DNA of 64,000 nucleotides from a virus (Duplodnaviria; Heunggongvirae; Uroviricota; Caudoviricetes): IMG/VR virus record IMGVR_UViG_3300037312_000757, one strand, 5' to 3'. Position numbers and translations under genes: made by a program. Below, piece by piece: positions 736-63,292 of this stretch. Within the stretch, counting starts at the first letter, position 1; each line of letters begins with the position of its first letter. The notes beneath the pieces were generated by a model. That model was given only the letters and a program-made list of their open reading frames with translations, made no database searches and had not been told where the DNA came from.

Positions 736-813
736 TTTATTCTTCTTTTGTTTTTGTTAGGCGGGGAATTACACCCCGCCGTTATTCTACAACTCTACTT
801 GCCAGTTGCAACC

Positions 814-1878: not shown

Positions 1879-1896
1879 GATTTTTGATTTTTGAGA

Positions 1897-2619
1897 TTAG
1901 GCCGAAGCCGGGGCGAACTGCTTGATCCACGTGCAGAACTCTTCGTTCAGCAGCAATGCATAAAGCTGGTCGTCAGTCATGTTGTGAATGTCGGACAAAG
2001 CCGCAAACCCAACATTTGGTTCCGACTCTGCGAGATTCTGCAGGGTTTGGAAACGTTCACTACCAATGCCAAGGAACATCCAGTAAATGTTCTTGTCACG
2101 GGTGCTTGCGATCAGTTGCGCAGTGCGCTCAACGTCGCTATAGTCGTTTTCGCCGTCAGTGTTGAACATGACGAACATAGGCAGATTCGGATCAGTTGCG
2201 GCAACTTCTTTCTTGCCAAACAGTCGGCCAAGCAAACCTGGCTTGCTGCCACCATCCGGGTGATCGTATGCGTTGATCACGGCTTCGATCGCGCGTGAGT
2301 AAACAGTACCGCCACCGTGGAAGTGCGGAATGAGTTCCTTCTGAACATACGTGCCAAATGTGTCTGGCGTTGCATCAGCGAGCTTCTTAGCTGATGTGTT
2401 GAAGATGAACTGCTCGAGGCTTTGGTTGTCGTCGAAACGCACGGCAACAGCCAACGAACGGTCGACGGTTTCTTGCATCACACCGCTTTGATAAAGACCG
2501 CTCATGGAACCTGAGCCATCATTTACCATCACTACGCGTGCGATGAGGTTTTCTGGGACGTTGAACTTCTTGAGGCGGAGACCTACCAGTTCGGTCTTCT
2601 TCTGTAATGAAAGAGCCAC
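1897..2619 (-). CDS. von Willebrand factor A (vWA) domain protein, TerY-like
   Basis: 240 aa with MIDAS motif DGSGSM and later TDGE. GTG start preceded by AAGGA. Third gene of the ter-like cluster. Confidence 0.65.
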   Translation of the reverse strand: MALSLQKKTELVGLRLKKFNVPENLIARVVMVNDGSGSMSGLYQSGVMQETVDRSLAVAVRFDDNQSLEQFIFNTSAKKLADATPDTFGTYVQKELIPHFHGGGTVYSRAIEAVINAYDHPDGGSKPGLLGRLFGKKEVAATDPNLPMFVMFNTDGENDYSDVERTAQLIASTRDKNIYWMFLGIGSERFQTLQNLAESEPNVGFAALSDIHNMTDDQLYALLLNEEFCTWIKQFAPASA

Positions 2620-3605: not shown

Positions 3606-4514
3606 TCAAGCGAGGCTGTCTTTATCAAGACAACCGAACATGCGGAGTGAAGCTTGGCGCATACGCTCACCCAGTACACGGTCATTGAACTTGTAAACGT
3701 TTATACGCATACGGCCGTAGGCGAACGGACCATCATCACCCACCAACAAGTCGACTTCACCTGTCTCTAGAGCTGCTACAGCGTCGTCAACGTCCCAGGA
3801 ATACGTGACCGATCGTTCTTGCTGGAACGGTATACTCTGTAGATGGCCGAGGTCAATGAAGAATTGTGCTTCATCCTTCAAACTCAGAAAGAACGTGGGT
3901 TCACCGTTGAAGTATCGATATACGTTGCCACGTTCGACGACTTCGAGCATGTTTTCACGCACGTATGTTGTACCACCTTCAACTTGGCGGTACTTGTTCA
4001 CACATTGTACACGATACGTGGTGATACGGTCGGAGCTGACATCGTCGTATTCAATGCTTTGCACAATGCCATATTCAAATTCACTGCGTCCACGGAAAGT
4101 GAACTTGATGAAGTCTCGTTCCCAAGCACGCGTAACAGGGAGATCAGCGATGAACGTTCGATTCTCGAGACGGTCGTCTACCACGTCGTGCCCTTCCGTG
4201 TTGCGTTCAGCGCGTGCATCGGAGAGTCGCCGATTGTATTCAGCCTTGTCAGTCATCGAGACTTTCCACATGTTGGGACTCGATGTGGTGCCGTCTTCCC
4301 ATTCGACGATAGCACCTCGGTCGATCTCGTAGATCCCAGGCTTTCGGGCCGAATAGCTGCCAATACGTGGTGAATAATGCAGAACGCGGTTCTTGCCGAC
4401 AATCACACCCTTCGTTCGATCCTTTACGGGGTCGCCTTTTTGCGCGTAATAGTCTTCACCACGATTGAAGATGACTTCGTCACCAACACGCATCACATTT
4501 TCAGTAAACGACAT
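3606..4514 (-). CDS. hypothetical protein (302 aa)
   Basis: Long ORF. RBS GGAGGTG before ATG. No recognised domain. Confidence 0.65.
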   Translation of the reverse strand: MSFTENVMRVGDEVIFNRGEDYYAQKGDPVKDRTKGVIVGKNRVLHYSPRIGSYSARKPGIYEIDRGAIVEWEDGTTSSPNMWKVSMTDKAEYNRRLSDARAERNTEGHDVVDDRLENRTFIADLPVTRAWERDFIKFTFRGRSEFEYGIVQSIEYDDVSSDRITTYRVQCVNKYRQVEGGTTYVRENMLEVVERGNVYRYFNGEPTFFLSLKDEAQFFIDLGHLQSIPFQQERSVTYSWDVDDAVAALETGEVDLLVGDDGPFAYGRMRINVYKFNDRVLGERMRQASLRMFGCLDKDSLA

Positions 4515-4515
4515 T

Positions 4516-4707
4516 TCACCTCCTGAAAGATTGACCGGCTTCGCGCAGCTTGACTTGATCGATGATAGCCGAAAGCTTGAAACCTTCTTCCATCACACGT
4601 CGTGTTTGCTCGTCGTCACGCATCAACCAGATTATGGTTGCGAAAGCCCCTCCTATCTCGATGATGCTGGCACCACCGAGAATGACGGGGAAGAGTAGGC
4701 TATTCAT
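4516..4707 (-). CDS. small membrane protein
   Basis: Start moved to MNSLLFPVILGG (hydrophobic helix) to avoid an ~70-nt overlap with the upstream gene. Weak RBS. Confidence 0.4.
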   Translation of the reverse strand: MNSLLFPVILGGASIIEIGGAFATIIWLMRDDEQTRRVMEEGFKLSAIIDQVKLREAGQSFRR

Positions 4708-4987
4708 AGCTGTATTCGGCCGGATCGACGAAACCAGCTGCGGCAACGAATAGATCATCAGCTTTGGCAAGGCTTTCGATGTGATCTTCCATTTCCAACC
4801 ATTCGAGCATACTCACGCCATCATGCTTGTCCATGGCGTCAATAGCGTGGCCACCGTTGAGGCGGGCGTCGATCTCTGCGCACACAACTTCATACATCGG
4901 ATGCATTTCGTTGGCCTCGATCTTGGCCAGCTCCAGGTCAGTCATCTTCTTGACCGACGTCAGTTGCTGGTAATCGAAATCGACCAT
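4700..4987 (-). CDS. hypothetical acidic protein
   Basis: Trimmed to Met17 (MVDFDYQQ) after GGAGAG. Promoter repeat upstream. Confidence 0.55.
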   Translation of the reverse strand: MVDFDYQQLTSVKKMTDLELAKIEANEMHPMYEVVCAEIDARLNGGHAIDAMDKHDGVSMLEWLEMEDHIESLAKADDLFVAAAGFVDPAEYSYE

Positions 4988-5055
4988 TTCTACTCTCCTT
5001 GAATGTTGTTCGCCACACGCAAATGGTAAGTTCATATGAGGGTGGCGTCAAGCGC

Positions 5056-5364
5056 TCACAGTTGAGTCTTCATCTTTCGCATCATCTGCGCAACGGAAAT
5101 GCATCCAGCTTCGCGCCCGCGTTGATCCACAATTGACATTCTGGCACGATCACCGCGCATTCCCGTACCGAATTCACGACCTCGTTCGGTTGCTTGCTTT
5201 GCAAGTTCCTCCAGAAGAAAGCCGGTAAACTTGCGCAGTTCATCCGTAACCATGATACGTTCACGGACACCCTGCGCCTCACCGTTTGCGTCGATGATGC
5301 CATCGGAGACATCGAAACCTGCTTGGCGGGCCAGTGCGAAAATGTCGATCTTCGTTGCCATCAT
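5056..5364 (-). CDS. hypothetical protein
   Basis: 102 aa. RBS GGAGAAC. Promoter repeat at 5370-5415. Confidence 0.55.
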   Translation of the reverse strand: MMATKIDIFALARQAGFDVSDGIIDANGEAQGVRERIMVTDELRKFTGFLLEELAKQATERGREFGTGMRGDRARMSIVDQRGREAGCISVAQMMRKMKTQL

Positions 5365-5415
5365 GTTCTCCTGTTCATTACCATATTCAAATAGTAAGTT
5401 CAGGTGAACATAACG

Positions 5416-6282
5416 TCAAGTGCCTGAAACAGCAGCGTAGAGGATTTCGATGCAGACGTCTTCAGTTTCGAAGTCAACGTCACGCTCTGGGTTGTATTCA
5501 ACCAACTCAAAACCGACTAACTTGGTTTTGTCCATGACTTCGAATGCCGTAACAACTTCCCACGCATCAAGCCCATTTTCTTCTGGAGAACCAACGCCAG
5601 GAGCTTGCTTCGGGTCAATCGAATCAACATCAAACGTGATACCAAATCCGATTGTGTTCTTTGTAACGATTTCTATTGCCTCGCCCAAGCAATAGAGAAA
5701 ACCTTTCTGTTGTACTTCTTCGATACGCATGACGCGAACACCCATGCTGGCAAGCAATTGTTCCTCGCCTGCTTCGCTGCTACGGGCGCCGATCACCACA
5801 ACGTTTTCTGGCTTGAACTTGGGCAGCGCATCAGCAATGCTAGTCAACTTATCATTGCCCTTACCTAGCAAGTGAGCCAAGGGCATACCATGAGGCGCAC
5901 CACTTTCTGATGTTTCAGGTGTATGGCTGTCCAAGTGTGCATCGATCCAAATCAGGCCGATGTCACCACGATCACGGTAGGTTTTCGCTATCGCACTCCA
6001 GGTACCAATAGCACAAGAATGATCGCCGCCGATCACGACAGGGAATACTTCCCGCTTCATCACTGCATCAACTGCTGATGCCAAGCGTGGCATGTAATCT
6101 TCGACAATAGCCATCTTGGATCCGAGCGACGCATCTGACGTGACCGTTTGGCCTAAGGCGATTGTAAGTTTGTGGGATTGAAGATCTTGAAGACGTTGCT
6201 GCAATGCAGCCGGGCCAGCTTTGCACTGGACAATTCGGGCACCTTCGCCAATCTCGGCGAAGACTACTTCGATATGAGACAT
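5416..6282 (-). CDS. arginase/agmatinase/formiminoglutamase-family ureohydrolase
   Basis: Ureohydrolase signature motifs GGDHS, DAHLD and FDVDSIDP present. Start set at MSHIEVV (GGGAG 5 nt upstream). Confidence 0.8.
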   Translation of the reverse strand: MSHIEVVFAEIGEGARIVQCKAGPAALQQRLQDLQSHKLTIALGQTVTSDASLGSKMAIVEDYMPRLASAVDAVMKREVFPVVIGGDHSCAIGTWSAIAKTYRDRGDIGLIWIDAHLDSHTPETSESGAPHGMPLAHLLGKGNDKLTSIADALPKFKPENVVVIGARSSEAGEEQLLASMGVRVMRIEEVQQKGFLYCLGEAIEIVTKNTIGFGITFDVDSIDPKQAPGVGSPEENGLDAWEVVTAFEVMDKTKLVGFELVEYNPERDVDFETEDVCIEILYAAVSGT

Positions 6283-7064: not shown

Positions 7065-7258
7065 CAGTTCTCCTTGACTTTGCGGGTCCGAACTACTGCG
7101 CAGTGAAAGCCGGCCGTTTTTCTGTAACCATGTTGCTGGTTATAGCAATCAGCAAAGGCTTCGGCTTTTGCTTTGTCGTCAAACGTATCGAGAAGGGCAT
7201 AGTCAGGGCCGCCGATACGGTCGCCTTTCACTTTGTGATACACGTAGAACGTGGCCAT
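7064..7258 (-). CDS. hypothetical protein
   Basis: Trimmed to Met10 (MATFYVYH) after CAGGAGAAAG. Promoter repeat upstream. Confidence 0.55.
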   Translation of the reverse strand: MATFYVYHKVKGDRIGGPDYALLDTFDDKAKAEAFADCYNQQHGYRKTAGFHCAVVRTRKVKEN

Positions 7259-7332
7259 TTTTGCTTTCTCCTGTTCATCTACCATGCAAGCATGGTACTT
7301 TCATATGGCAACGAGTCAAGTACCAAATGATG

Positions 7333-22405: not shown

Positions 22406-22482
22406 CTGGTCTCGGGTGTGGGATTCGAACTCACGTCACCTGGTCCCAAACCAGGCACACTAACCAGGCTGTGCTAACCCGA
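22406..22482 (-). tRNA. tRNA-Pro (anticodon UGG)
   Basis: Hand-folded cloverleaf: acceptor CTCGGGT/ACCCGAG, D-arm GCAC/GTGT, anticodon stem CCTGG/CCAGG with loop TTTGGGA, T-loop TTCGAAT, encoded CCA. Confidence 0.8.
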
Positions 22483-22611
22483 GATATGTAGTTCCGTGTT
22501 CATGGTTGTATCACAATCGTCTACAGCATACATGAACAGAGTGTCGACCCTCTTGGAACTACGGGGGTGGAAGTTCCGCATCCGCGTAGACTTGGAACTT
22601 CCGATCACTGT

Positions 22612-22623
22612 GGGGGGGGGGGG
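22612..22623. repeat. G12/C12 homopolymer tract inside the tRNA cluster spacer
   Basis: 12 consecutive G on the plus strand between tRNA-Pro and tRNA-Ala, within a highly structured ~165-nt spacer. Confidence 0.7.
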
Positions 22624-22651
22624 CCAGCTTTCGCCAGCGCCCTTAAAATCT

Positions 22652-22727
22652 TGGTGGAGGTAGACGGGATCGAACCGACGACCTTTAGCTTGCAAAGCTA
22701 CTGCTCTCCCAGCTGAGCTATACCCCC
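22652..22727 (-). tRNA. tRNA-Ala (anticodon UGC)
   Basis: GGGGGTATAGCTCAGCTGGGAGAGC... with G3:U70 Ala identity pair, anticodon loop TTTGCAA, T-loop TTCGATC, CCA. Confidence 0.8.
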
Positions 22728-22728
22728 A

Positions 22729-22804
22729 TGGTACATCCTGACGGGATCGAACCGCCGACCTTCGCCTTGTAAGGGCGTTGCTCTACCAGCTGAGCTAAGG
22801 ATGC
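22729..22804 (-). tRNA. tRNA-Val (anticodon UAC)
   Basis: GCATCCTTAGCTCAGCTGGTAGAGC..., anticodon loop CTTACAA, T-loop TTCGATC, CCA. Only 1 nt from tRNA-Ala. Confidence 0.75.
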
Positions 22805-31546: not shown

Positions 31547-32371
31547 TTACTTCTTGGCTACATCAATTACCTTTGCCACCCCGCCAATGTTATCGGCTTG
31601 TGTTTGGGCCGCGTTGGCGTTGCGCCACGCGATCACTTGTTCGGGCGTGAGATGCGCAGCATCAGCAGCGGCTCGAAGTGCTTCTGCGTCAATTGACGCT
31701 TTCTGCCGAGCAAGTTCCTTGCGTTGTGCAATCAGCGCAAGTTCAGCAGCATTGCTCTCTCGCTCTGCGTTGAACGACGCAACCTTGTTCACCTGTTGCT
31801 GAATAGAATCTGGCAACTTAAAGTGTGTCGTCGTAACGTTCACTGACAAAAACGCATCAGGATAACGTTGATCCAGCAATCGTTTGAATTCAGCTGATGC
31901 TTTCTCGTCATACGCTTGTGTATTTTTGGCAATAGCAACCGGATTGTCAGTTTCAGTTACCGTTTGCATCACACCAGGTGCCCACTGTTTGATGGCCTCA
32001 AGCCCGATCGTTGTATATTCTCGATTGCTACCATCTTTGTATGTGTCAAGTTCATGTGTGGTAGAATAGAACTGTGATACATGCTGTGGATTGAGCGTAT
32101 AAGTGACAATGATATCAAGATCATCCACAGGCACGCCATCAGCATCTTTTGGTGTCAGGTTATTTACCACTACCCTTGTGGGTGTGGTGTCGACTTCGGC
32201 GAGGATCGAATCGAAGAACATCCAGTGAAATCCAGGTGTAGCGACCTCAGGGTCGATCTTGCCACCCCAATGCTTGACGATGCCAATATTACCTGATTCA
32301 ATCCGCGAGCATCCACTCATCGCAAGAATGATGGTTGCAAGCGCAGCAAAAAGTGCTAGAGTGCGTTTCAT
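31547..32371 (-). CDS. SPFH/band-7 (prohibitin/HflKC-like) lipoprotein
   Basis: Start at MKRTLALFAALATIILAMSGC (lipobox) after ACGGAGGT. GIVKHWGGKIDPEVATPGFHW... SPFH-type core plus an Ala/Glu coiled-coil tail. Confidence 0.55.
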   Translation of the reverse strand: MKRTLALFAALATIILAMSGCSRIESGNIGIVKHWGGKIDPEVATPGFHWMFFDSILAEVDTTPTRVVVNNLTPKDADGVPVDDLDIIVTYTLNPQHVSQFYSTTHELDTYKDGSNREYTTIGLEAIKQWAPGVMQTVTETDNPVAIAKNTQAYDEKASAEFKRLLDQRYPDAFLSVNVTTTHFKLPDSIQQQVNKVASFNAERESNAAELALIAQRKELARQKASIDAEALRAAADAAHLTPEQVIAWRNANAAQTQADNIGGVAKVIDVAKK

Positions 32372-32420
32372 TATACCTCCGTAGATTGTTTGGTGCGCCA
32401 TTATATATGAATGGCAAATG

Positions 32421-39656: not shown

Positions 39657-40058
39657 TTATTCCGCTGCGGCAGCCTTCGCCGGCTTCGTCGAACGCGTGT
39701 TCACCTTGCCTTCCTTCTGCGCTGCGGCGAAGCCCTTCGCGACGTCTTCCATGATCGTCGGGCAGGTCTGCTTGATCGCCTTCGCCGACGTGATGTCCAC
39801 GTACTGGATGCCCTTCACGTCCTTGCCTTCGAGCTTCAGCGCGAACAGTTCGAGAGCTGCGTCGAGCTCCGTGCGCTTCTCGGTCTTGAAGCGCAGCTTG
39901 CCACCACGGCGACCGTAGAACTTGACGAGGCGCTGTCCCTTGCCTGCGCCGATGTAAGCCAGACCCCAGACGCTGTCCTTCGACGGCTTGCCGCCCTTCT
40001 CGCCGCGTTCGCCATCGACCAGTGCGTGTCCCAGACGGATGATTTCGACTTGTGCCAT
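39657..40058 (-). CDS. paralog family B protein
   Basis: MAQVEIIRLGHALVDGERG...GRRGGKLRFKT. RBS GGAGAAG. 5'-UTR hairpin GCTGCgttttGCAGC. Confidence 0.6.
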   Translation of the reverse strand: MAQVEIIRLGHALVDGERGEKGGKPSKDSVWGLAYIGAGKGQRLVKFYGRRGGKLRFKTEKRTELDAALELFALKLEGKDVKGIQYVDITSAKAIKQTCPTIMEDVAKGFAAAQKEGKVNTRSTKPAKAAAAE

Positions 40059-40534: not shown

Positions 40535-40864
40535 TCAGCACCAAGTAAAGTGGAACGCGAGTGCGTCGTTGAAGTTCTCGAACAGTGCAACACGATTGAT
40601 AAACCGTAGCGACCATCCGCCAGTGCAGTTCTCTTTCGCCCATCGATAGATGGGACTTGTTCTAGCTTTGTCTGTCTCCAAACGCAACGGTTTTGCCTTG
40701 GTTGCCAAGTCGAACATAACTAGATCACCAACAGCATATGCCGGTGCGAAGTCATGCTGTTTTTGCACCAACTCGAAGAGCTCCTGGCGCATTCTCGAAC
40801 TACCACATTGGATGAGATCTGGGTACGCAATCCAGTCATCTATTTTGAAAAGGCGTGCGGACAT
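40535..40864 (-). CDS. paralog family A small protein
   Basis: 109 aa ending ...FNDALAFHFTWC. Confidence 0.5.
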   Translation of the reverse strand: MSARLFKIDDWIAYPDLIQCGSSRMRQELFELVQKQHDFAPAYAVGDLVMFDLATKAKPLRLETDKARTSPIYRWAKENCTGGWSLRFINRVALFENFNDALAFHFTWC

Positions 40865-40865
40865 A

Positions 40866-41156
40866 TTAGAACCAGGTCATGTAGACAAGCAGAGCGTCAG
40901 TGTACTCTGCAAAGAACATGGCTTCATTGGAAATGTTCAGGAAATGACGACCTGTCATGTTCCCTTCAAACCATTGACGCAATGTTGACCACTGCTCGTA
41001 GATTGGGTCTGGCTCAAAGCCGTATATCATGTACACCGGTACGAAATGTGCGACCTTCCACACGTGGTCGATCACATAATGTCTACCACGAGACCCAACC
41101 ATTTCTGAGTGTGGCTCGGCTACCCAGTCTTCAACCTTGAGTAGCCGTACCGTCAC
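40866..41156 (-). CDS. paralog family A small protein
   Basis: 96 aa ending ...YTDALLVYMTWF. GTGA junction. Confidence 0.5.
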   Translation of the reverse strand: MTVRLLKVEDWVAEPHSEMVGSRGRHYVIDHVWKVAHFVPVYMIYGFEPDPIYEQWSTLRQWFEGNMTGRHFLNISNEAMFFAEYTDALLVYMTWF

Positions 41157-41476
41157 AGTTTGTCACCGTGTGTCATGTAAAACTTGATCGCGTCGATCTC
41201 ACGTTCGAAGAACACTACGAACACGCCCGTACCGTTGCGTGAGCGGGCGATCATCTCCTGACGACCTTCGCACTGGCCATCCAACCATTCAACCAGTTCC
41301 GTCATCGCCCACTTGCGTTTGTGGTTGAATGCGATAACGAGAGCGCAAGCGATCGGGAACGTCATCGACTCAACACCGTTCAGGAACCAGCTGCCAGCAT
41401 GTTCGACATCACCGTACAGGTGATCGAGTTTGCCAAGCTCGTTGAAGACGTGGGGTTTGAAGATTTGTACGTTCAT
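41153..41476 (-). CDS. paralog family A small protein
   Basis: Trimmed to MNVQIF (ATGA junction). Ends ...EIDAIKFYMTHGDKL. Confidence 0.5.
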   Translation of the reverse strand: MNVQIFKPHVFNELGKLDHLYGDVEHAGSWFLNGVESMTFPIACALVIAFNHKRKWAMTELVEWLDGQCEGRQEMIARSRNGTGVFVVFFEREIDAIKFYMTHGDKL

Positions 41477-41673
41477 TCGGCAAGGTATGGACTGAACCAC
41501 AACCCCTCGTGTTGAGCGTTGAACTTACCTGCCTTGTACATTGCACCAGCTTCGTTGTACCCGACGAACGCGTCAGCCGGGTTAGGGCTTAGCCATTGCT
41601 CACCAGCCTTGCCGGTGTAGTACAGTTTTTCGCCAGTTTGCTTGTTTTCTGCCACTACACCATGCGTACTCAT
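41473..41673 (-). CDS. hypothetical small protein
   Basis: Trimmed to MSTHGVV after GGGAGAA. Confidence 0.45.
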   Translation of the reverse strand: MSTHGVVAENKQTGEKLYYTGKAGEQWLSPNPADAFVGYNEAGAMYKAGKFNAQHEGLWFSPYLAE

Positions 41674-41733
41674 TATTATTCTCCCGCACAAAGGTTATTG
41701 GACTTCAGATGATACGTTCATATGAACATACAG

Positions 41734-42006
41734 TCAACCCCAAGTCAGCAACCACAACATTGCTTCATTTTCGTCTTCGAAGTAGATAGCAGGTGGGATA
41801 AAGTCAACACCAGGGTTTGTGCCTACCTGCTTCTTTATTTGTTCGTGCCGCCAATCAGGACATACTGCGTAAAAGTGAAGATGATGGTCGGTCAACAATA
41901 CTGATGATGGCTTGAACAGGACATTGCCCATGTTGCGCGACATCCAATTCTGCACTCGGTTTTCACCATACATCTCGATGAAGTCAGGGAACGAAACCAG
42001 CTTCAT
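41734..42006 (-). CDS. paralog family A small protein
   Basis: 90 aa ending ...ENEAMLWLLTWG. Confidence 0.5.
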   Translation of the reverse strand: MKLVSFPDFIEMYGENRVQNWMSRNMGNVLFKPSSVLLTDHHLHFYAVCPDWRHEQIKKQVGTNPGVDFIPPAIYFEDENEAMLWLLTWG

Positions 42007-42007
42007 G

Positions 42008-42253
42008 TTACTGACCCTTCTTACCCAAGCGAATGGTCATCGTCTCCCGTAATTTTTCAACTTCGAAGGTTTCGCCCTCGAAATAGCTGATGAAATCCTC
42101 CGGAAGCTGTTGCAAGACGAGGTCTGTTTCGTAGACCGAAGTGTACGGCATGAAACCACCACGACCACCCTCTTCGGTGGTGATGACCTGGATGACTGCG
42201 TCTTCAGGAAATTGATCGAGCCACTTTTGCAATTCGAGTCGCGTCACACTCAT
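42008..42253 (-). CDS. hypothetical small protein
   Basis: 81 aa. RBS CAGGAGAAC. Promoter repeat upstream. Confidence 0.5.
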   Translation of the reverse strand: MSVTRLELQKWLDQFPEDAVIQVITTEEGGRGGFMPYTSVYETDLVLQQLPEDFISYFEGETFEVEKLRETMTIRLGKKGQ

Positions 42254-42259
42254 CTCGTT

Positions 42260-42305
42260 CTCCTGTCGTTACCATGTTCATATGGTAAGTTCAAATGAAC
42301 AATCA
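42260..42305 (-). promoter_or_regulatory. conserved promoter/operator/leader repeat copy
   Basis: ttaccatgttcatatggtaagttcaaatgaacaatcagtcaagcgc. Confidence 0.55.
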
Positions 42306-42602
42306 GTCAAGCGCAAGATAGAATTGCATAGCATCAGAATGATTCTGGAAATACGCAAAACCAAGTCCGTCCAATGCATACTGCTGAATGCCTTGGTTCT
42401 TCAGAATTTTTTCGTAAACACTGGGCGCTTCAATAGCAGACGCGACAACGAATTCAATCGTTATCTTGTTTTGGCGCTCCAATCGTCCTATGTCAATGCG
42501 GCGTTTTTTGCGCGTCTCGCGTGATGCACGCTGCTTCAGAAAATTGCCCTTGAAGTCGTACTCGACGCCGACAAAATCTTCAACGGTAAAGAGCTCAGCC
42601 AT
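42303..42602 (-). CDS. paralog family A-like small protein
   Basis: 99 aa ending ...HSDAMQFYLALD. Confidence 0.5.
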   Translation of the reverse strand: MAELFTVEDFVGVEYDFKGNFLKQRASRETRKKRRIDIGRLERQNKITIEFVVASAIEAPSVYEKILKNQGIQQYALDGLGFAYFQNHSDAMQFYLALD

Positions 42603-42662: not shown

Positions 42663-43169
42663 TTACGCCTTCTGCTGTAGTGCTTCGAGGACCAGCGGGT
42701 GAATGTACTTTGCGACTTTCACTTCCCAGTTGTCGAAGCCGACAAACCCGCGCACCGCTGATGAACTGATACGAGTTTTGTCTTCGGGCGGGATAACGAA
42801 AACATGGTCGATTTCGCTTTCGATATCCATGTTGAACCCTTGAATGTCTTTCTCGTAATCGAAATCGACACCGTTCCGAATACCGCGCATGATTGTGGTA
42901 ACGCCCAAGCGCTTCGCCACGCTGACGGTGAATTCATTTTCGACAACTACAAACTTCAGCTTTGCGAACAGTTCAGGTGTCAGAGAATCAGCTAGTACAC
43001 GACGAGCCAGGTCTTCACGCTCAACAGCATTGAACATGCCCTTCTTTGCTGGATTGTAGGCGATTGCAAAGTAGACTTCATCGAATGTCTTGCAAGCTCG
43101 TTCGACCATCCACTCATGGCCACGGGTGATGGGGTCGAATGACCCCGTTGTCATACCAATCGTGTACAT
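42663..43169 (-). CDS. coaD: phosphopantetheine adenylyltransferase (CoaD/PPAT)
   Basis: TGSFDPITRGHEWMVERA ... RGIRNGVDFDYE ... ISSSAVRGF aligns along the full length of CoaD (T/HxGH motif and ISSS motif). TAATG-coupled to coaE. Confidence 0.8.
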   Translation of the reverse strand: MYTIGMTTGSFDPITRGHEWMVERACKTFDEVYFAIAYNPAKKGMFNAVEREDLARRVLADSLTPELFAKLKFVVVENEFTVSVAKRLGVTTIMRGIRNGVDFDYEKDIQGFNMDIESEIDHVFVIPPEDKTRISSSAVRGFVGFDNWEVKVAKYIHPLVLEALQQKA

Positions 43170-44404
43170 TAGATCCAACGCCCCCATTTCTTGATGATGT
43201 TGTTTACGTTGCGCTTCGCGTTGTCCTCGAATTGCGAGAAGTGCGGCGAATGGAAAATCCGTTCACGATCAGCAAACGTCTTCATTGCCACGACTCGACC
43301 ACGAGCAAATGTGATGACGTCGTATTGGTCTTTGAATTCTTGATACACCGCTTCGTCGAACGCATTAGCTTCTGCTTCAGTTCCGCCGAGCATCATCAAG
43401 TCCACGTCCAAGAACAGTTCGCAATCAGCTTTCAGTTCAGGATTCGAAAGCAAGTATGGAGACGTGATCGCATGGCCTTTAGTCGCCATGATGAATTCGG
43501 CAACCGTGGCCAGTGTCGGTATACCAGCTTCAATCTCGAAGCCCAGTGCTTCTGGCAGATGCTCCCTGAACTGTTCCATCATGAACTTGACACTCCACGC
43601 TTCGTTGAAGGCGTACAGGTCCTTGTAAGCGCTGTAGACAGCGTCGTGATAGATGATTGCCAGTCCCGCAATGCCCGGATAGTTAAACTTTTCGACGTTG
43701 TTCATGAACCAGCGGTACATCTGGCGTGGATGATCAGCGTTATGCCAGTGCCGACTCGTATCGAAATACTGCTTCATTGCATTGTCGAACAGAACACCAG
43801 CTTCCTTTTCGTGACCGTAGAATGCACCCTGGAAAAACAAACGCAGATCTTGCAGCGAGATACGATCAGCAATGCGCTTCGCCTCGTCCTCCAGATCCTC
43901 GAGAGAAATGTTGGTATCAACCGTGTCGTCGGCCATTGCGATCTTGACACGCGTGCTCAGTTGCGCTGCGCGGATGCGTTCGATCTTCTCCTGCGTGAAG
44001 CCATCTCGCGCCATCACACGCTGCATCTGCACGTCATCTGCGCAGTGACACGTGATGACAAAGTCATACTTGCCGCTCTTGCCCATTTCGTACAGAAGCG
44101 GGAACTCCATCACCAGATGTTTCTTGTAGTCGTAGTTCGCCAGCTTCCAACGCATTGTGTCCTTGGTCAGGTCTTCCAACCACAGACGATCGGCCGAGTT
44201 GTTGAACACGATGTCCGACACCTTCTTGCGGTCGGACGTGCCGAAGCGATTCTCGAGATCAAGCTTGAACGCTTTGTCGTTGTAGAGGTCGCGAACCATG
44301 TCGTCGATGCTTGCGTGCTCGTAGTTTGCCGCCAAGTGTTTCAGCAGCAACTTCGTGAATGTTGTCTTGCCACAGCCGATGTTGCCAGTGATGGCTACTC
44401 GCAT
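43169..44404 (-). CDS. coaE: dephospho-CoA kinase (CoaE) fused to a C-terminal HD-domain phosphohydrolase
   Basis: N-terminal MRVAITGNIGCGKTT P-loop and CoaE-like blocks (IDDMVRDL, FPLLYE, DDTVDTN). C-terminal HWHNADHP...IIYHDAVY HD motif. RBS GGGAGA. Confidence 0.8.
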   Translation of the reverse strand: MRVAITGNIGCGKTTFTKLLLKHLAANYEHASIDDMVRDLYNDKAFKLDLENRFGTSDRKKVSDIVFNNSADRLWLEDLTKDTMRWKLANYDYKKHLVMEFPLLYEMGKSGKYDFVITCHCADDVQMQRVMARDGFTQEKIERIRAAQLSTRVKIAMADDTVDTNISLEDLEDEAKRIADRISLQDLRLFFQGAFYGHEKEAGVLFDNAMKQYFDTSRHWHNADHPRQMYRWFMNNVEKFNYPGIAGLAIIYHDAVYSAYKDLYAFNEAWSVKFMMEQFREHLPEALGFEIEAGIPTLATVAEFIMATKGHAITSPYLLSNPELKADCELFLDVDLMMLGGTEAEANAFDEAVYQEFKDQYDVITFARGRVVAMKTFADRERIFHSPHFSQFEDNAKRNVNNIIKKWGRWI

Positions 44405-44473
44405 GAATGGTCTCCCGTAAATGAGGCCATTCTATATTCGTTTGTGACTACCGTAAAGTCTATCAACAAATTG

Positions 44474-44499
44474 AAAAGGCTCCCAGTTGGGAGCCTTTT
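44474..44499. terminator. bidirectional intrinsic terminator
   Basis: AAAAGGCTCCCagttGGGAGCCTTTT. Confidence 0.6.
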
Positions 44500-44501
44500 C
44501 A

Positions 44502-45071
44502 TTACCACGGAAAATCAGCCTTCTTGATCTTGACTAACCGACCATCAGGGTGCCACCAAACGACACCTTCAATCGGCTTATCACGCAGATATTCCATGAT
44601 GCCATCAAACGTGCGTGGGCAGTCTTCCAAGATATCCTTGCCGTGCGGGACAAGAATGTGCTCGGTCAAGCCTTCCGGATTAGCACCGTGCCGCGTCCCA
44701 ATCTTGGGGCCACAAGCCTCGTAAGTGCCATCAGGAATGCCATCAGCATACTTACCCTTCAAAGCCCATTCAACAGCTTCGCGAATCCACTTCGAATCCG
44801 GACCATCAGTAGGTACCCAGCCTGGCCAGTGACCAGACTTGGGATCCGGGTTAGGTTGGGCAGGGATGAAGTCCACGGGAGGGGTTCTCCCAGCCTTAGC
44901 GTCGTAACGCTTAAAGACTCGACCATCCTTTACCAACACGGCCACGCCATCCCACTTACGAGTGGCGTAACCTTCCCCAGAAACAACCCATTCAGTTCCG
45001 GGCGTAACTTCGTCACGAACCTTACGGTCACCATCGTAGTTACGAACAAACAACGAAACGGTCTTCTTCAT
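44502..45071 (-). CDS. minimal nucleotidyltransferase of the ligase superfamily (KxDG), RNA/DNA-ligase-like
   Basis: Start MKKTVSLF after AAGGAG. Motif I RKWDG, motif IV EGVVWW, motif V LVKIKK. Confidence 0.5.
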   Translation of the reverse strand: MKKTVSLFVRNYDGDRKVRDEVTPGTEWVVSGEGYATRKWDGVAVLVKDGRVFKRYDAKAGRTPPVDFIPAQPNPDPKSGHWPGWVPTDGPDSKWIREAVEWALKGKYADGIPDGTYEACGPKIGTRHGANPEGLTEHILVPHGKDILEDCPRTFDGIMEYLRDKPIEGVVWWHPDGRLVKIKKADFPW

Positions 45072-45193
45072 GTACTGCTCCTTAAAAGTGATGAGATAGT
45101 TTTCGAGTCCCATCAACGCCACCTTTAAGGCTTACTGCAACTTCCTTTACTGCTAAGCCATATTGTATATATGGCTCATACTACAGTCAAGCA

Positions 45194-45469: not shown

Positions 45470-45976
45470 TTACGCTGCCAGCTTTGCTGCTTGCGCTGCC
45501 GCGATCGAAGCTTGCGTCGGGAACGCGAACACCTTCTTCGGGTCCGGAGCCTTGTACTTCGGAGCCTTCGGGGCCTTTGCTGCCTTTGCTTCGGCGCCCT
45601 TCGCCGTTTCACGCGTGTTCAGCTTCTTGTTCGTCGATGCCTTGTGGAACATCTTGCCAAGCGTGTCTGCGAAGTCTGCACCCAGCACTTCGTCGCGTGC
45701 TGCTGCGTCGAGATCCTTGTACGCGAAGCCCTTGTCCTTGCCCGTCAGCTTCACGTCCGTGTAGAACGCGAGGACCTTGTCCATGTCTGCCTTCTTGTAC
45801 GTCTTGAAGCGCAGCATGCCACCGCGACGACCACCGAACGTTGCCAGCGTCGTCACCACGCCGAAGTTGATCAGCGCAATACCAAACACGCTGTCCTTCG
45901 ACGGTGCGCCACCGTTGTCACCACGCTTGCCAGCAACCAGTGCGTGACCAACACGAACGATTTCGATCTTTGCCAT
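45470..45976 (-). CDS. paralog family B protein with AKAPKAPKYKAPDPKK histone-like tail
   Basis: MAKIEIVRVGHALVAGKRG...GRRGGMLRFKT. 5'-UTR hairpin GCAGCGctttgtcttCGCTGC. Confidence 0.6.
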   Translation of the reverse strand: MAKIEIVRVGHALVAGKRGDNGGAPSKDSVFGIALINFGVVTTLATFGGRRGGMLRFKTYKKADMDKVLAFYTDVKLTGKDKGFAYKDLDAAARDEVLGADFADTLGKMFHKASTNKKLNTRETAKGAEAKAAKAPKAPKYKAPDPKKVFAFPTQASIAAAQAAKLAA

Positions 45977-46142
45977 GTTCATTTCTCCTTAAAGTTGTTT
46001 ACCAGTTTTGTTTGCAGCGCTTTGTCTTCGCTGCGTCGTCTACCATGTCGCTATATTATGTTCATCTGAAACTTGAATCAACAGCTAAATGAACAAATTT
46101 TCAACTTTTTTCATCTGTTGTGGCAACACAACATGGTTCAAA

Positions 46143-46595
46143 TTATCTGCAACCGTAGTCGTATGCTACCAAACGTCCATGACGATTGAATCCTACTTGA
46201 CCTCCGTCAACACTCCAAGTCCAGTCAGACTCGCCAGGAGGCGTACCCAAGTGCTCTTCTACTTCTCGTACTGAAGCATGGCGAACGCATTCCATAAAGA
46301 CTATGGCAATGTCACCAACATAGACAAGACGTGTTCGCGCGTATTGCACATACTGGGGATCACCATAATTCTCACCGTTGGAAACGGATCCTTCCCAGTC
46401 ATTATCAGCAACACCATCCCAGTTCATGGGAATCTTCACGACATAGTTGGTGAAAACGAATACCATACGGTTGCGGCCGCACAAAACATCCGGAGTTCTG
46501 GTTGCATAACGCAACGCCAAGTTTTTCACTGTTTCATTGACTTCCGAATCATGAAATTGAATCCAGTCGTCAAGATTTGAAATATCAGCAGTCAT
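46143..46595 (-). CDS. hypothetical protein
   Basis: 150 aa. RBS GGTGGTGA. Confidence 0.55.
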   Translation of the reverse strand: MTADISNLDDWIQFHDSEVNETVKNLALRYATRTPDVLCGRNRMVFVFTNYVVKIPMNWDGVADNDWEGSVSNGENYGDPQYVQYARTRLVYVGDIAIVFMECVRHASVREVEEHLGTPPGESDWTWSVDGGQVGFNRHGRLVAYDYGCR

Positions 46596-46906
46596 ACATA
46601 TTCACCACCAAAGCGGAAGTAGAACGCAAGTGCATCAGCGTGTTTCAAGAACATGTAGATGCCAATACGGGTGATTGCAGCGTATTCCGTGCGCACCCCG
46701 GGCACGTCAGACACATTGTCCATGCACCAGTCAATCATGTCACACCAGCCGTTAAGCGACGTGGCTTCTTTGCCGGTGATATGCACGACATAGATGGTGT
46801 CAGGACTACGCATGCCACGTATGGCCTTTCGGATCTGTGTCCAATACTCCTTCTCGAAGCCATGCACGAAGGCGTCGATATCCTTGATCTCGGTTACGCT
46901 AGACAA
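46592..46906 (-). CDS. paralog family A small protein (start uncertain, possibly TTG)
   Basis: Ends ...HADALAFYFRFGGEYV. The track N-terminus overlaps the upstream gene. TTG preceded by GGGGGA. Confidence 0.4.
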   Translation of the reverse strand: MSSVTEIKDIDAFVHGFEKEYWTQIRKAIRGMRSPDTIYVVHITGKEATSLNGWCDMIDWCMDNVSDVPGVRTEYAAITRIGIYMFLKHADALAFYFRFGGEYV

Positions 46907-47195
46907 ATCGAGTCCCCCAAGTAAGATAAAAGTGCAAAGCGTCAGTGTATTCTTTGAAAAAGAAGAAACCAAGGTCATCGTCAGTCAAGTATCGGCCATC
47001 CATGTACTCGATAAGCCAATCGGTGATCTCTTCCCTGTTAGATACAACAATGACTGTGTCGACATCGACCAGATACACGGTTGATGGGAAATCACGCAAA
47101 GACTGTTTCATCTTTGCGTAATCTTCCATGAAATAAAACGTGTTGAGCAGCTTGTTCAACTCATACTGGTCAAGCTGCCTTATCTGCGTGCTCAC
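46899..47195 (-). CDS. paralog family A small protein
   Basis: 98 aa ending ...YTDALHFYLTWGTRFV. GTG start, GTGA junction. Confidence 0.5.
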   Translation of the reverse strand: MSTQIRQLDQYELNKLLNTFYFMEDYAKMKQSLRDFPSTVYLVDVDTVIVVSNREEITDWLIEYMDGRYLTDDDLGFFFFKEYTDALHFYLTWGTRFV

Positions 47196-58234: not shown

Positions 58235-58789
58235 TCAAGCTTTTTTCGTTCGCGTTTTCGTGATGACAAACTGGAAGTAGCTTGATTGCTGATCAATCGA
58301 TTTGCCATTTACGATGGGATACTTCGTGTCCCATTCGTACTTCACCTTCTTGGGATTCCGCGCATATGGATCCTGGTACATGTCGAGTCGATGATAGTGA
58401 CCTAGACTGCGCCACGTGCGTACTGCCATTTCACCAATACAGGTGCTGCTGTGGATCTTTTTCAACACGTGAGCGGCGCCGAGATAGAGAACTGTTCCGA
58501 GCCCACGTCCACGGTAGCCGCGCTTCAGATAGACTGCGTACACCCCGTAACCGATCTTGCGCTCTTTTTTCTTGTTGAGCGATATGATACCGACGATCTG
58601 CTTGTCGCGATTACGCTGCAAATAAACGTATTGACTCCAGCGCGTACCTTTGTCCAGGTGAAAGAGCGTCAGTCCGTCTTTTGTGCCGAGATTAGTGGCT
58701 TCGTTGCCGTTTGCTACGGCTTCTTTAATTTCGTCCTTGAGATTGTTGAAGCCCCACAGGTCGTAATTTTCGCCTTTTGTAATGTACAT
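58235..58789 (-). CDS. GNAT-family N-acetyltransferase
   Basis: Motif A ...GVYAVYLKRGYRGRGLGTVL... Start set at MYITKG. The track N-terminus is low-complexity. Confidence 0.55.
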   Translation of the reverse strand: MYITKGENYDLWGFNNLKDEIKEAVANGNEATNLGTKDGLTLFHLDKGTRWSQYVYLQRNRDKQIVGIISLNKKKERKIGYGVYAVYLKRGYRGRGLGTVLYLGAAHVLKKIHSSTCIGEMAVRTWRSLGHYHRLDMYQDPYARNPKKVKYEWDTKYPIVNGKSIDQQSSYFQFVITKTRTKKA

Positions 58790-58943
58790 TGCCAAATCAA
58801 TATTGTTATTGTTATGGGAACTGCTGAGCGCATGATACATATGGCAACTGAAGCGTCAAGGTGCCAAATGACTATTTCACGTCTATTCTGGTTAACTGGC
58901 AACCTGTTGTAGAATGGCAACTATTCATTTACGAGTTAAAACA

Positions 58944-62746: not shown

Positions 62747-63292
62747 ATGCTCTCCTTTTCGTACCAATATAAGAATAATAAAATGGATTGGGATCAGTAT
62801 TTTATCAGCATGTGCTACTTCGTAGCCATGAAAAGCAAAGACCCGTCAACAAAAGTTGGCTGCGTTATCGTGGGGGAAGATAACGAAGTAGTCTCAACAG
62901 GCTTCAACAGTTTCCCCCGCTTGCTCAACGACAATATCCCAGAACGCGCCCATAGACCCCTCAAGTACATGTTCATTGAGCATGCCGAGCGGAATGCGAT
63001 CGCAAACGCCGCGCGTATTGGAGCGTCAACCAAAGACTGCAAGATGTATATGCTCTGGTACCCTTGCGTTGAGTGTGCGCGAATGGTTATCCAGAGCGGT
63101 ATCAAGGAAGTGATCATTCACCAAGAGTTTCCCGGCAACGATCAGCATGTCGGCCACTGGCAAGAAAGCATGGTTGTAGGCCAGCAAATGCTGCAAGAAT
63201 GCGGAGTCACGATTCGTTGGTGGTCGGGCGAAGCAATCACGCCAGTCGCAACATATCAGGGAAATTCGTTCCCACTCAACTCCCTCAAGTAA
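62747..63292 (+). CDS. dCMP (deoxycytidylate) deaminase
   Basis: HAERNAI ... PCVECARMV zinc-binding CDA motifs with dCMP-deaminase-type spacing. RBS AAAGGAGAG. Confidence 0.85.
   Translation: MLSFSYQYKNNKMDWDQYFISMCYFVAMKSKDPSTKVGCVIVGEDNEVVSTGFNSFPRLLNDNIPERAHRPLKYMFIEHAERNAIANAARIGASTKDCKMYMLWYPCVECARMVIQSGIKEVIIHQEFPGNDQHVGHWQESMVVGQQMLQECGVTIRWWSGEAITPVATYQGNSFPLNSLK

Follow-up and report, generated by a model that had tools for sequence, protein, structure and literature searches.

Two predicted genes for the end of coenzyme A synthesis

What do two adjoining genes that resemble coaD and coaE do on a genome that is probably viral, and why does one of them carry an additional domain? The genes lie on the minus strand of a stretch of 64,000 nucleotides (hereafter the window). 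We consider it likely that they form a two-gene operon which finishes coenzyme A (CoA), with a third, hydrolase domain that is linked to the same pathway. The features on which the analysis is based are the following.

42663..43169, minus strand: predicted CoaD (phosphopantetheine adenylyltransferase, PPAT), 168 aa; TIGR01510, PF01467 and PDB matches
43169..43171, minus strand: TAA stop of the fusion gene, base 43169 doubling as the A of the coaD ATG; direct reading
43172..43849, minus strand: putative PDE-like metal-dependent phosphohydrolase domain of the HD superfamily, residues 186-411 of the 411-aa ORF; fold and metal ligands
43850..44404, minus strand: predicted CoaE (dephospho-CoA kinase, DPCK) domain, residues 1-185 of the 411-aa ORF; PF01121, TIGR00152 and PDB matches
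44416-44411, minus strand: Shine-Dalgarno sequence GGGAGA, 5' of the fusion gene; direct reading
44429..44457, minus strand: promoter-like site TTTACG-17-TAGAAT, 5' of the fusion gene; consensus scan, 9/12 matches
44472..44501, minus strand: terminator-like hairpin with a 13 bp stem, 7 GC pairs and a T-rich tail, between the RNA-ligase-like gene and the CoA operon

The 411-aa ORF occupies 43169-44404 (coding from 44404 to 43172, TAA stop at 43171-43169) and shares a single base with the 168-aa ORF at 42663-43169. The junction reads ...ATC TAATG TAC..., and from this 1-nt overlap we infer translational coupling of the fusion gene and coaD. TAATG-type overlaps or tight spacing were seen again in relatives, e.g. 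in locus L002 at 11236 and in L009 at 7257-7260. An alternative upstream ATG at 43187 would extend the coaD product to 174 aa. The ATG at 43169 is favored, since it is the start in independent gene calls made for an identical contig and the PPAT alignments begin there. The hairpin upstream of the fusion gene suggests that the two CoA genes are transcribed as a unit of their own. Promoter-like sites in the region numbered six, compared with 2.9 ± 1.7 expected; they are consensus matches only and show no clear enrichment. On the plus strand, a 462-aa ORF (43139-44527) runs antisense to the fusion gene and was taken as a shadow ORF.

Genomic context and viral origin

The initial annotation had described the genes as phage-encoded. 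PHROG matches, a jumbo-phage-like neighbor and homologous modules in IMG/VR agree with this, but the window holds no structural hallmark gene. The genome that carries the module is very large (524 kb) and probably viral, and we infer its phage origin from circumstantial evidence. Eighteen PHROG families were matched among the 54 larger window ORFs. More than 100 ORFs were counted in the window; they are short and mostly co-directional, few have a Pfam match, and there are tandem paralogue families. Genes of Ralstonia and Burkholderia jumbo phages match the upstream neighbor at 65-70% identity (70% for Ralstonia phage RP12). This neighbor, at 44502-45113, is RNA-ligase-like (PF17720 RLIG1, E 1.4e-6, just above the cut-off) and is called 'RNA ligase' in RP12. 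At the corresponding position RP12 has no CoA genes, and a phage-wide tblastn returned no RP12 match to the fusion. Syntenic contigs of 294-307 kb carry Phage_g100, HNH and GIY-YIG genes, and the closest CoaE relatives lie on IMG/VR viral contigs of 290-425 kb.

Alternatively, the two genes might be ordinary cellular coaD and coaE, and the 524-kb contig a megaplasmid, a chimeric assembly or a chromosome from some unusual cell. In line with this, capsid, terminase and tail genes were not found in the 64-kb window, and the 54 larger ORFs contain no virion or packaging hallmark except a weak match to Gp23 (E 3e-4). TerD/TerC/TerF, arginase, SmpB and tRNAs give the window a partly cellular look, and one related fusion (L109) lies on a contig of 1.46 Mb. 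Neither the locus nor the related locus L006 had a DNA match to INPHARED phages in megablast, and tblastn with two other window ORFs against isolated phages found nothing. However, the short co-directional ORFs, the PHROG families, the RP12-like neighbor, the homing endonucleases and Phage_g100 on syntenic contigs and the viral CoaE relatives all point the other way. A scan of species-representative genomes recovered ordinary coaE only, at 25-33% identity, and no fusion. Moreover, cellular coaD and coaE are almost never adjacent: coaD was next to coaE in 2 of 80 cellular coaE loci, and a member of the hydrolase family in none of the 80. We therefore regard a non-phage origin as rather unlikely.

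Identity of CoaD and CoaE

The assignment of the 168-aa ORF to CoaD in the initial annotation was borne out by all profile searches. TIGR01510 gave 135.5 bits (cut-off 103.3, E 1.5e-39) and PF01467 gave 48.2 bits. The CoaD motifs TGSFDPITRGH, RGIRNGVDFDYE and ISSSAVR are present and were aligned to solved PPATs, and all 34 PDB sequence matches are PPATs that align end to end. Scores for NadD, NadR, citrate-lyase-ligase and RibF were 12-23 bits with NCBIfam cut-offs of 112-341, and an identity as NadD, TagD or another nucleotidyltransferase was ruled out by the NCBIfam scores. Judged from its sequence, the 168-aa protein is an unambiguous candidate for a phosphopantetheine adenylyltransferase.

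The N-terminal 185 residues of the 411-aa ORF were likewise recovered as CoaE. TIGR00152 scored 82.5 bits (cut-off 65.55, E 3.4e-23), and PF01121 scored 82.2 bits over residues 3-168 (cut-off 27). The P-loop GNIGCGKTT that had been quoted for this ORF is present. The best 14 PDB matches are all dephospho-CoA kinases, led by 8dv0 at E 3e-17; a putative adenylate kinase in fifteenth place falls short of significance (E 0.47). The entire CoaE motif set (P-loop, Asp after strand 2, PLLxE and QxxRxxxR lid) was found when the domain was aligned with solved DPCKs. Residues T6-G-N-I-G-x-G-K13-x-T15 of the P-loop, D34, E100-x-P102-L103-x-x-E106, Q126, R129 and R133 are invariant in 11 homologues. A generic P-loop kinase (dNK, thymidylate kinase or AAA) was rejected, since only CoaE models exceed their cut-offs; the dNK, AAA_18, PRK and tRNA_lig_kinase models all remained under their own. 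The N-terminal domain is a predicted dephospho-CoA kinase. An assignment of the two ORFs to other subfamilies, which the initial annotation had named as the outcome that would speak against it, was looked for with both proteins, and the CoaD/CoaE reading was not refuted.

Distribution of the module

The CoaE-hydrolase fusion was found in at least 54 protein clusters. CoaD adjoins it in 11 of 13 distinct full-length fusion contexts with readable flanks; on two short fusion contigs (L108 and L111), CoaD was not found within the short flank available. The gene stands directly beside the fusion in the window and in L002-5, L006/L107, L007, L009, L098, L099, L104-106, L109 and L115. Most of the long fusion contigs measure 220-525 kb and are phage-like. 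Other arrangements exist as well. Adjacent but unfused CoaE and CoaD are encoded on related IMG/VR contigs of 350-425 kb (L011-13). In L010 and L113, CoaE and CoaD form a single polypeptide, which ties the kinase functionally to the PPAT. In the sub-lineage of L109, L111 and L115 the hydrolase domain lacks the metal ligands and is a catalytically dead form, and in others the domain is absent; hydrolase activity therefore appears dispensable for the CoaE/CoaD pair.

The initial annotation had also held that CoA genes of this kind are not commonly described in phages. This does not apply to the single genes, because coaD and coaE are among the viral AMGs of earlier reports and several jumbo phages have an annotated CoaD, but it does apply to the fusion. 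Neither the CoaE-hydrolase fusion nor its strict linkage to CoaD is reported in the searchable literature. A tblastn search of INPHARED phages gave no homologue of the C-terminal half of the fusion.

A PDE-like hydrolase domain with conserved metal ligands

The C-terminal domain had been proposed to be an HD domain. The quoted pattern is indeed present (H221-N-A-D-H225 ... Y-H253-D254), but a match to an HD sequence model was not obtained. PF01966, the family suggested for it, did not match the window domain even at E<=10, and neither did other HD models. The stand-alone relative P0101 reached E 0.0026 with an HD model, which is under the cut-off. Membership of the HD superfamily rests on the conserved metal-ligand pattern together with the fold: H...HD...D is found on an all-helical fold, and structure comparison identified the catalytic-domain fold as specifically class-I-PDE-like. 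The C-terminal domain on its own drew no match in a word-indexed protein database, and its profile gave nothing meaningful against PDB sequences. Family members were retrieved by exhaustive HMM search. The family comprises about 14,300 clusters, has no Pfam or NCBIfam model and occurs in bacteria, fungi and phages, mostly as a stand-alone protein in cellular genomes, fungi included. Stand-alone relatives in phages are phrog_19425, two BFVD proteins at TM 0.76 and L097. No characterized relative was found, and literature searches on COG4339, on an HD/dephospho-CoA kinase fusion and on CoA-depleting phage defense yielded nothing relevant. Four contexts without fusion to CoaE were examined. In two of them the family member stands among cobalamin-biosynthesis genes, and thus the family is not specific for CoA.

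In 54 fused members the putative metal ligands H221, H225, H253, D254, D333 and D335 show 100% conservation, and the same holds for 106 stand-alone members. From these ligands, the third domain is a putative metal-dependent phosphohydrolase of the HD superfamily that is predicted to be catalytically intact.

The fold resemblance could mean that the domain is an anti-defense or signaling phosphodiesterase for cAMP or cyclic (oligo)nucleotide immune signals, with no pathway link to CoaE. Enzymes for the breakdown of cyclic-nucleotide signals are known from phages, 3',5'-cyclic nucleotide phosphodiesterases came out as the top matches by structure, and the family has the stand-alone phage relatives named above. 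However, without a common pathway one can hardly account for the fusion to CoaE in at least 54 clusters, with CoaD beside it in nearly all contexts examined. In addition, the domain is only 11-16% identical to class I PDEs (PDE1-9, yeast PDE2; PF00233) and about 100 residues shorter. PF00233 did not match it, and the HDxxHxGxxN signature is absent, the sequence reading H253-D-A-V-Y-S where HDxxHxG would stand. The mostly stand-alone occurrence of the family in cellular genomes points to housekeeping chemistry. We consider a signaling role unlikely.

It is equally unlikely that the domain is non-catalytic here and serves the kinase as a scaffold, an oligomerization module or a CoA-sensing regulator. 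L109, L111 and L115 do keep the domain after loss of the metal ligands, and the full-length predicted model of the 411-aa protein is confidently rigid (pTM 0.83). Nevertheless, neither the putative ligands nor some ten other polar residues vary in the window protein or among the 54 high-scoring fusions, and stand-alone members show exactly the same invariance. Such a pattern marks an active site that has been maintained.

RNA end-healing, with the fusion as a polynucleotide kinase/2',3'-phosphatase (T4 Pnkp or bacterial HD-Pnk type) and 'CoaD' as a co-opted nucleotidyltransferase, which would work with the adjacent RNA ligase on tRNAs cut by host anticodon nucleases, is very unlikely: the kinase exceeds the CoaE equivalog cut-off with tRNA_lig_kinase under its own (E 0.031), its partner is unambiguously a full-length PPAT that shares one polypeptide with the kinase in L010 and L113, no RNA ligase stands beside the module in L006, L007, L009, L098 and L104, and the terminator-like hairpin separates the RNA-ligase-like gene from the operon in the window. 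The observations on its side are the architecture of a kinase with a metal phosphoesterase, which recalls Pnkp, and the RNA-ligase-like gene immediately upstream, which is kept in L002-5. Furthermore, one of 54 pooled window ORFs (ORF unspecified) matched phrog_14301 (RNA ligase) at E 1.8e-82, in L011 there is an RtcB ligase 1.4 kb upstream of the pair, and the distant fusion P0087 also matches the tRNA-ligase kinase model (E 1.9e-6).

Proposed role of the operon

As the finishing operon for CoA that we favor, the two genes would act in sequence. CoaD would adenylylate 4'-phosphopantetheine to dephospho-CoA, and the CoaE domain would then phosphorylate the 3'-OH of dephospho-CoA to give CoA. 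In this way the 4'-phosphopantetheine pool of the host could be converted to CoA by phage enzymes, bypassing the feedback-controlled CoaD step of the host, and metabolism that depends on acetyl- and acyl-CoA might be sustained through a long infection. Among the cofactor pathways that phages encode, those for NAD+ are the most familiar, and they act against host immunity; to our knowledge, CoA in phages has hardly been considered except in lists of annotations. Many huge-phage-like genomes have the module, and its repeated remodeling (CoaE with CoaD, one-chain CoaE-CoaD, CoaE-hydrolase with CoaD, dead hydrolase) argues for selection, during infection, on the replenishment of CoA from 4'-phosphopantetheine.

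Because it nearly always occurs with CoaE and CoaD, the hydrolase most likely cleaves a phosphoester bond in some metabolite that belongs to the pathway or borders on it. Further CoA, ACP or PPTase genes were not seen in the 64 kb, and a regex scan gave no ACP-like small ORFs. Our preferred guess, a tentative one, is that the domain has an accessory role, in supply or in clean-up, and acts on an ester of an adenine nucleotide or of phosphopantetheine. As a supply step, it might free 4'-phosphopantetheine that is bound as a phosphodiester, for instance in holo-carrier protein. As a clean-up step, it might remove the 3'-phosphate from CoA, pAp-type nucleotides or aberrant intermediates, by analogy with the DUF89 domain of PANK4. 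More doubtful still is that the domain represents a previously unrecognized step of CoA/phosphopantetheine metabolism, namely an AcpH-independent holo-carrier phosphodiesterase or a CoA/pAp 3'-phosphatase. The former activity, together with CoaD and CoaE, would turn the prosthetic group of host ACP into CoA and shut down host fatty-acid synthesis; the latter would tune the CoA/dephospho-CoA ratio. If the hydrolase acts on an ester of the CoA pathway, a textbook pathway gains a new enzyme; if it does not act there, the module is a well-documented auxiliary metabolic operon. For the large orphan family of PDE-like HD hydrolases, the strict fusion and linkage offer an initial hint at function through guilt by association.

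Comparison with known systems

As CoA enzymes the window proteins are ordinary. They resemble bacterial monofunctional CoaD and CoaE in their scores above the equivalog cut-offs, in end-to-end alignments with solved PPATs and DPCKs and in the family motifs. They are only 25-35% identical to the cellular enzymes, and the window kinase carries an extra hydrolase domain of 226 aa. Bacterial coaD and coaE are normally unlinked (adjacent in 2/80), whereas the window genes overlap by 1 nt on a phage-like genome.

With COASY, the eukaryotic PPAT-DPCK fusion, the module shares the physical coupling of the last two CoA steps, which in L010 and L113 also reside on one polypeptide. The domain order of COASY is PPAT followed by DPCK. 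In contrast, the single-chain phage form has DPCK followed by PPAT, and in the window the kinase is fused to the hydrolase and the PPAT is a separate adjoining gene. The long actinobacterial CoaE (NF002879, PDB 6n39) is likewise about 400 aa long and carries, behind its DPCK part, a C-terminal GrpB/UPF0157 domain. This architecture was rejected for the window protein: only residues 2-178 match 6n39, NF002879 scored 41 bits with a cut-off of 215, and the C-terminal domains are unrelated. AcpH, the acyl carrier protein phosphodiesterase of the HD superfamily, releases 4'-phosphopantetheine, the substrate of CoaD, and would be a logical third step of the module as a mechanistic idea only. Membership of the window domain in the AcpH family was rejected (no PF04336 match; hhalign probability 0.3% with E. 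coli AcpH).

In viruses, coaD and coaE were reported as abundant AMGs of snow viromes (PMC11097641), and a PPAT was annotated in phage PhiMa05 (PMC8093824). PPAT is also annotated in Brevundimonas phages and Mx1, and tblastn gave CoaD matches in unannotated Lak phage records. These earlier reports are at the level of annotation and do not mention a hydrolase fusion; the window has that fusion. The best functional analogy is PANK4 of animals, in which a pantothenate-kinase-like domain is joined to a DUF89 metal-dependent phosphatase that acts on 4'-phosphopantetheine (PMC9633907). In both proteins a CoA-pathway kinase fold is fused to a metal-dependent phosphatase. The likeness is functional only, since PANK4 differs in its kinase (PanK instead of CoaE), in the fold of its phosphatase (DUF89 instead of HD/PDE-like) and in the pathway step.

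Identity and layout of the CoA operon

The initial annotation described a phage-encoded CoaD gene coupled to a CoaE-HD fusion at 42663-44404, and this pair was confirmed by coordinates and family assignments. ORF reading gave two genes.

43169-44404 (stop included), minus strand, CoaE-hydrolase fusion ORF, 411 aa
within 42663-44404, minus strand, coaD ORF, 168 aa from the ATG at 43169 (174 aa from the first ATG)

Direct reading of the junction, ...TGG ATC TAATG TAC..., revealed that the TAA of the fusion gene and the ATG at 43169 have one base in common. Therefore, the product is the 168-aa protein as first described. Gene calling on an identical contig, recovered from a different sample, chose the same start, and alignments with solved phosphopantetheine adenylyltransferases (PPATs) also begin there. 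From the overlap we infer translational coupling of the fusion gene to coaD. The sequence contains GGGAGA seven bases before the ATG of the fusion gene, a sigma-70-like site (TTTACG-17-TAGAAT) preceding the gene, and a 13-bp GC-rich hairpin with a T-rich tail between it and its upstream neighbour. Since these elements set the fusion gene and coaD apart, the two look like a separate bicistronic unit. A 462-aa plus-strand ORF (43139-44527) lies antisense to the entire fusion gene and is presumed to be a shadow ORF.

The short protein (168/174 aa) fell in PF01467 and scored 135.5 bits against the NCBIfam CoaD equivalog TIGR01510 (cut-off 103.3). Models for NadD, NadR, citrate-lyase-ligase and RibF gave just 12-23 bits, with cut-offs >100. 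All 34 matches in a PDB sequence search were PPATs aligned end-to-end, and the TGSFDPITxGH, RGxRxxxDFxYE and ISSSxxR blocks of solved PPATs are kept. Residues 1-185 of the 411-aa protein scored 82.2 bits against Pfam CoaE, PF01121 (cut-off 27), and 82.5 bits against TIGR00152 (cut-off 65.55); every other P-loop kinase model remained under its own cut-off. The top 14 PDB matches of this protein were dephospho-CoA kinases (DPCKs), and the sole remaining match was insignificant. Thus the profile searches identify CoaD and CoaE, and placed the pair neither in another nucleotidyltransferase subfamily nor in an unrelated kinase family, the outcome named beforehand as contradicting the assignment. 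The first interpretation was essentially correct.

The hydrolase domain

Residues 186-411 had been called an HD domain. This holds at the level of superfamily and fold, because the metal-site pattern is present though the PDE signature is absent; the proposed PF01966 (HD) search gave no match at E<=10. The same was true for PF00233 (PDE) and PF04336 (AcpH), and indeed for every Pfam or NCBIfam model at this threshold. The sole family match was a PHROG family labelled 'phosphohydrolase' (E 2e-13). Across 11 full-length homologues (30-64% identity), Y213, R218, H221, H225, H253, D254, N267, E268, S271, T308, H311, D333, D335, E356, R370 and R380 are invariant. The resulting H-x3-H ... HD ... D pattern agrees with the metal site of the HD superfamily. 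In contrast to class I PDEs, the domain does not carry the signature HDxxHxG. It is PDE-like and lies outside every modelled family. An anti-defence PDE unrelated to CoA is a rival reading of the domain, and it is not favoured.

Genome context and probable viral origin

The window is part of a 523,837-bp JGI contig. It holds >100 short ORFs, mostly co-directional and few with Pfam matches, together with three tRNAs and tandem paralogue families. Its 54 larger ORFs matched 18 PHROG families. The following features were assigned.

136-735, minus strand, TerD
814-1878, minus strand, DUF475/TerC-family membrane protein
1897-2529, minus strand, vWA TerF-like protein
5416-6282, minus strand, arginase-family protein
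22407-22804, tRNAs Pro-TGG, Ala-TGC and Val-TAC
31547-32401, SPFH/Band 7 protein
44502-45113, minus strand, RNA-ligase-like gene directly upstream of the CoA operon, PF17720 RLIG1 barely above cut-off
58235-58840, minus strand, GNAT acetyltransferase (PF00583, E 2.4e-6), 14 kb from the CoA operon
probably 62747-63292, plus strand, dCMP deaminase

The first three genes form a tellurite-resistance-type cluster (136-2529, minus strand) in this phage-like genome. The arginase-family protein, the tRNAs, the Band 7 protein and the dCMP deaminase are likewise of cellular type, as are genes for SmpB, a PLD-like protein and a RelA/SpoT-type HD_4 protein. Seven minus-strand paralogues of 90-128 aa flank the operon within 40535-42602 and 46592-47195 (40535-40864, 40866-41156, 41153-41500, 41734-42006, 42303-42602, 46592-46978 and 46899-47195). 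They share the C-terminal motif F..x..DA(L/M)xF(Y/H)(L/M)TWG, and the four members scanned had no Pfam match. A second minus-strand paralogous pair (39657-40058, 133 aa; 45470-45982, 170 aa), likewise with no Pfam match for either product, has near-identical N-termini, M..(V/I)EI(I/V)R(L/V)GHALV.G.RG..GG.PSKDSV.G..., and Lys/Ala/Pro-rich, histone-H1-like tails. These two proteins may bind DNA.

The product of 44502-45113 is 65-70% identical to genes of the Ralstonia jumbo phages RP12, RP31 and FLC1-1B and of Burkholderia phage FLC9, with 70% identity to the 'RNA ligase' of RP12 and RP31. Phage RP12 has no CoA genes at the matching position. Syntenic contigs of 294-307 kb hold Phage_g100, HNH and GIY-YIG genes. 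Searches of INPHARED gave no DNA match for the CoA locus and no protein match for two other window ORFs, and a weak Gp23 match was the only trace of virion genes in the window. Weighing the jumbo-phage similarities against these negative results, we do not favour a non-viral origin of the module; viral origin of the contig is likely.

Linkage of the fusion to CoaD

CoaD directly adjoins the fusion, in either gene order, at the window locus and its identical copy L001, at the retrieved loci L098, L099, L104-106, L109 and L115, and at the following loci.

L002-5, contigs of 294-307 kb, fusion with adjacent CoaD, 41% identity
L007/L008, fusion with adjacent CoaD, 30% identity
L009, IMG/VR contig of 292 kb, fusion with adjacent CoaD
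L006 (same record as L107), 222 kb, fusion with adjacent CoaD

No CoaD was present within the flanks at hand of the short contigs L108 and L111. Other forms occur on related contigs of 350-425 kb from IMG/VR and metagenomes: in L011, L012 and L013, CoaE and CoaD are separate genes that overlap, and L010 and L113 encode one 349-aa CoaE-CoaD polypeptide. Judged from these sequences, the one-chain form links the kinase in function to PPAT, and it argues most strongly against a non-CoA role of the kinase. An RNA end-healing module, as the RNA-ligase-like neighbour kept in L002-5 might suggest, is not favoured; a terminator-like hairpin divides that gene from the CoA genes.

The cellular comparison pointed in the opposite direction. 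It covered 80 coaE loci from cells, 847 kb of sequence altogether. Only two, each on a contig of a DPANN archaeal MAG, had coaD next to coaE, and no locus carried a member of the hydrolase family. A scan of species-representative genomes found ordinary coaE genes only (25-33% identity). The two archaeal contigs (Nanoarchaeota and Woesearchaeota) carry bacterial-type CoaE and CoaD; this pairing could stem from a salvage-only CoA route or from bins contaminated by viral or bacterial DNA.

In L109, L111 and L115 the C-terminal domain is retained with its metal ligands lost (H225Y, D254A/L, H311L/M, D335A/M), making it a predicted pseudo-enzyme; in L109 and L115 CoaD still follows. L112 and L116 keep just a remnant of the domain. 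The hydrolase activity therefore appears to be an accessory that some lineages discarded. A purely structural domain would fit the ligand-less copies, and is not favoured for the window protein, whose predicted site is fully intact. The L109 locus (4001-5944) lies among ORFans on contig Ga0308158_10000004 (1,463,929 bp); for this 1.46-Mb contig a cell, a giant virus and a misassembly are candidates.

Contexts of the hydrolase family

When 1.84 billion cluster representatives were searched exhaustively with the profile, 14,304 clusters matched at E<=1e-3, of which 9,949 reached E<=1e-10. The majority stand alone, with lengths of 200-240 aa; one is fungal. The best 150 clusters and earlier matches included 54 CoaE fusions (380-451 aa). 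Putative catalytic residues are equally conserved in fused and stand-alone members, and therefore the chemistry is probably the same throughout. Four members not fused to CoaE were inspected. In L096 (4610-5609), from a bacterial contig of 1.07 Mb, a stand-alone hydrolase gene shares bases with the stop of a CobU-like ORF. Another is a 598-aa hydrolase-tetrapyrrole methylase fusion within a cbi cobalamin cluster with CbiA, CobD, CbiX, CbiC and CbiG (L103, 5001-6797). The third has ORFan neighbours. The fourth comes from a viral contig, where the adjacent genes look Nudix- and HAD-like by sequence motifs only. Because such members sit in other contexts, including cobalamin, the family is not restricted to CoA. 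Nucleotide-type phosphoesters encountered during cofactor assembly may be its substrates, and it might supply a phosphatase step in building the cofactor nucleotide loop.

Proposed role and comparison with known systems

The operon would convert 4'-phosphopantetheine to CoA. PPAT is a feedback-controlled step of the CoA pathway, and 4'-phosphopantetheine accumulates in E. coli. A phage PPAT/DPCK pair could let the infected cell tap this pool, and the GNAT acetyltransferase would be one potential CoA-dependent (acetyl-CoA) consumer in the same genome. Three roles are conceivable for the hydrolase. It may free 4'-phosphopantetheine by cutting a phosphodiester, e.g. that of holo-ACP. The HD-family enzyme AcpH cleaves this bond, but the window domain has no detectable similarity to it. 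Alternatively, it may act as a 3'-phosphatase or in damage control, with CoA, pAp or aberrant intermediates as substrates. Two points make this option attractive. In adenine and guanine nucleotides, the bond that PDEs cleave is P-O3'. In addition, PANK4 joins a CoA-pathway kinase fold to a metal phosphatase (PMC9633907). Finally, it may remove a by-product. The module would gain weight if the hydrolase proved to carry out a reaction of CoA or phosphopantetheine metabolism not recognised so far.

The literature search retrieved no description of a CoaE-HD fusion, this hydrolase family or CoA-directed phage-host conflict, and the hydrolase half had no homologue in any INPHARED phage. CoaD and coaE have been reported among the abundant viral auxiliary metabolic genes of snow viromes, with a purpose called unknown (PMC11097641), and a PPAT is annotated in the jumbo cyanophage PhiMa05 (PMC8093824). 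Brevundimonas phages and Mx1 also have an annotated CoaD, and unannotated records of Lak megaphages gave CoaD-like tblastn matches. Both CoA enzymes are thus ordinary family members in an unusual, tightly coupled viral setting already reported at annotation level. New are the fusion of CoaE to a PDE-like hydrolase, its strict association with CoaD in numerous huge-phage-like genomes, and the module's plasticity over evolution.
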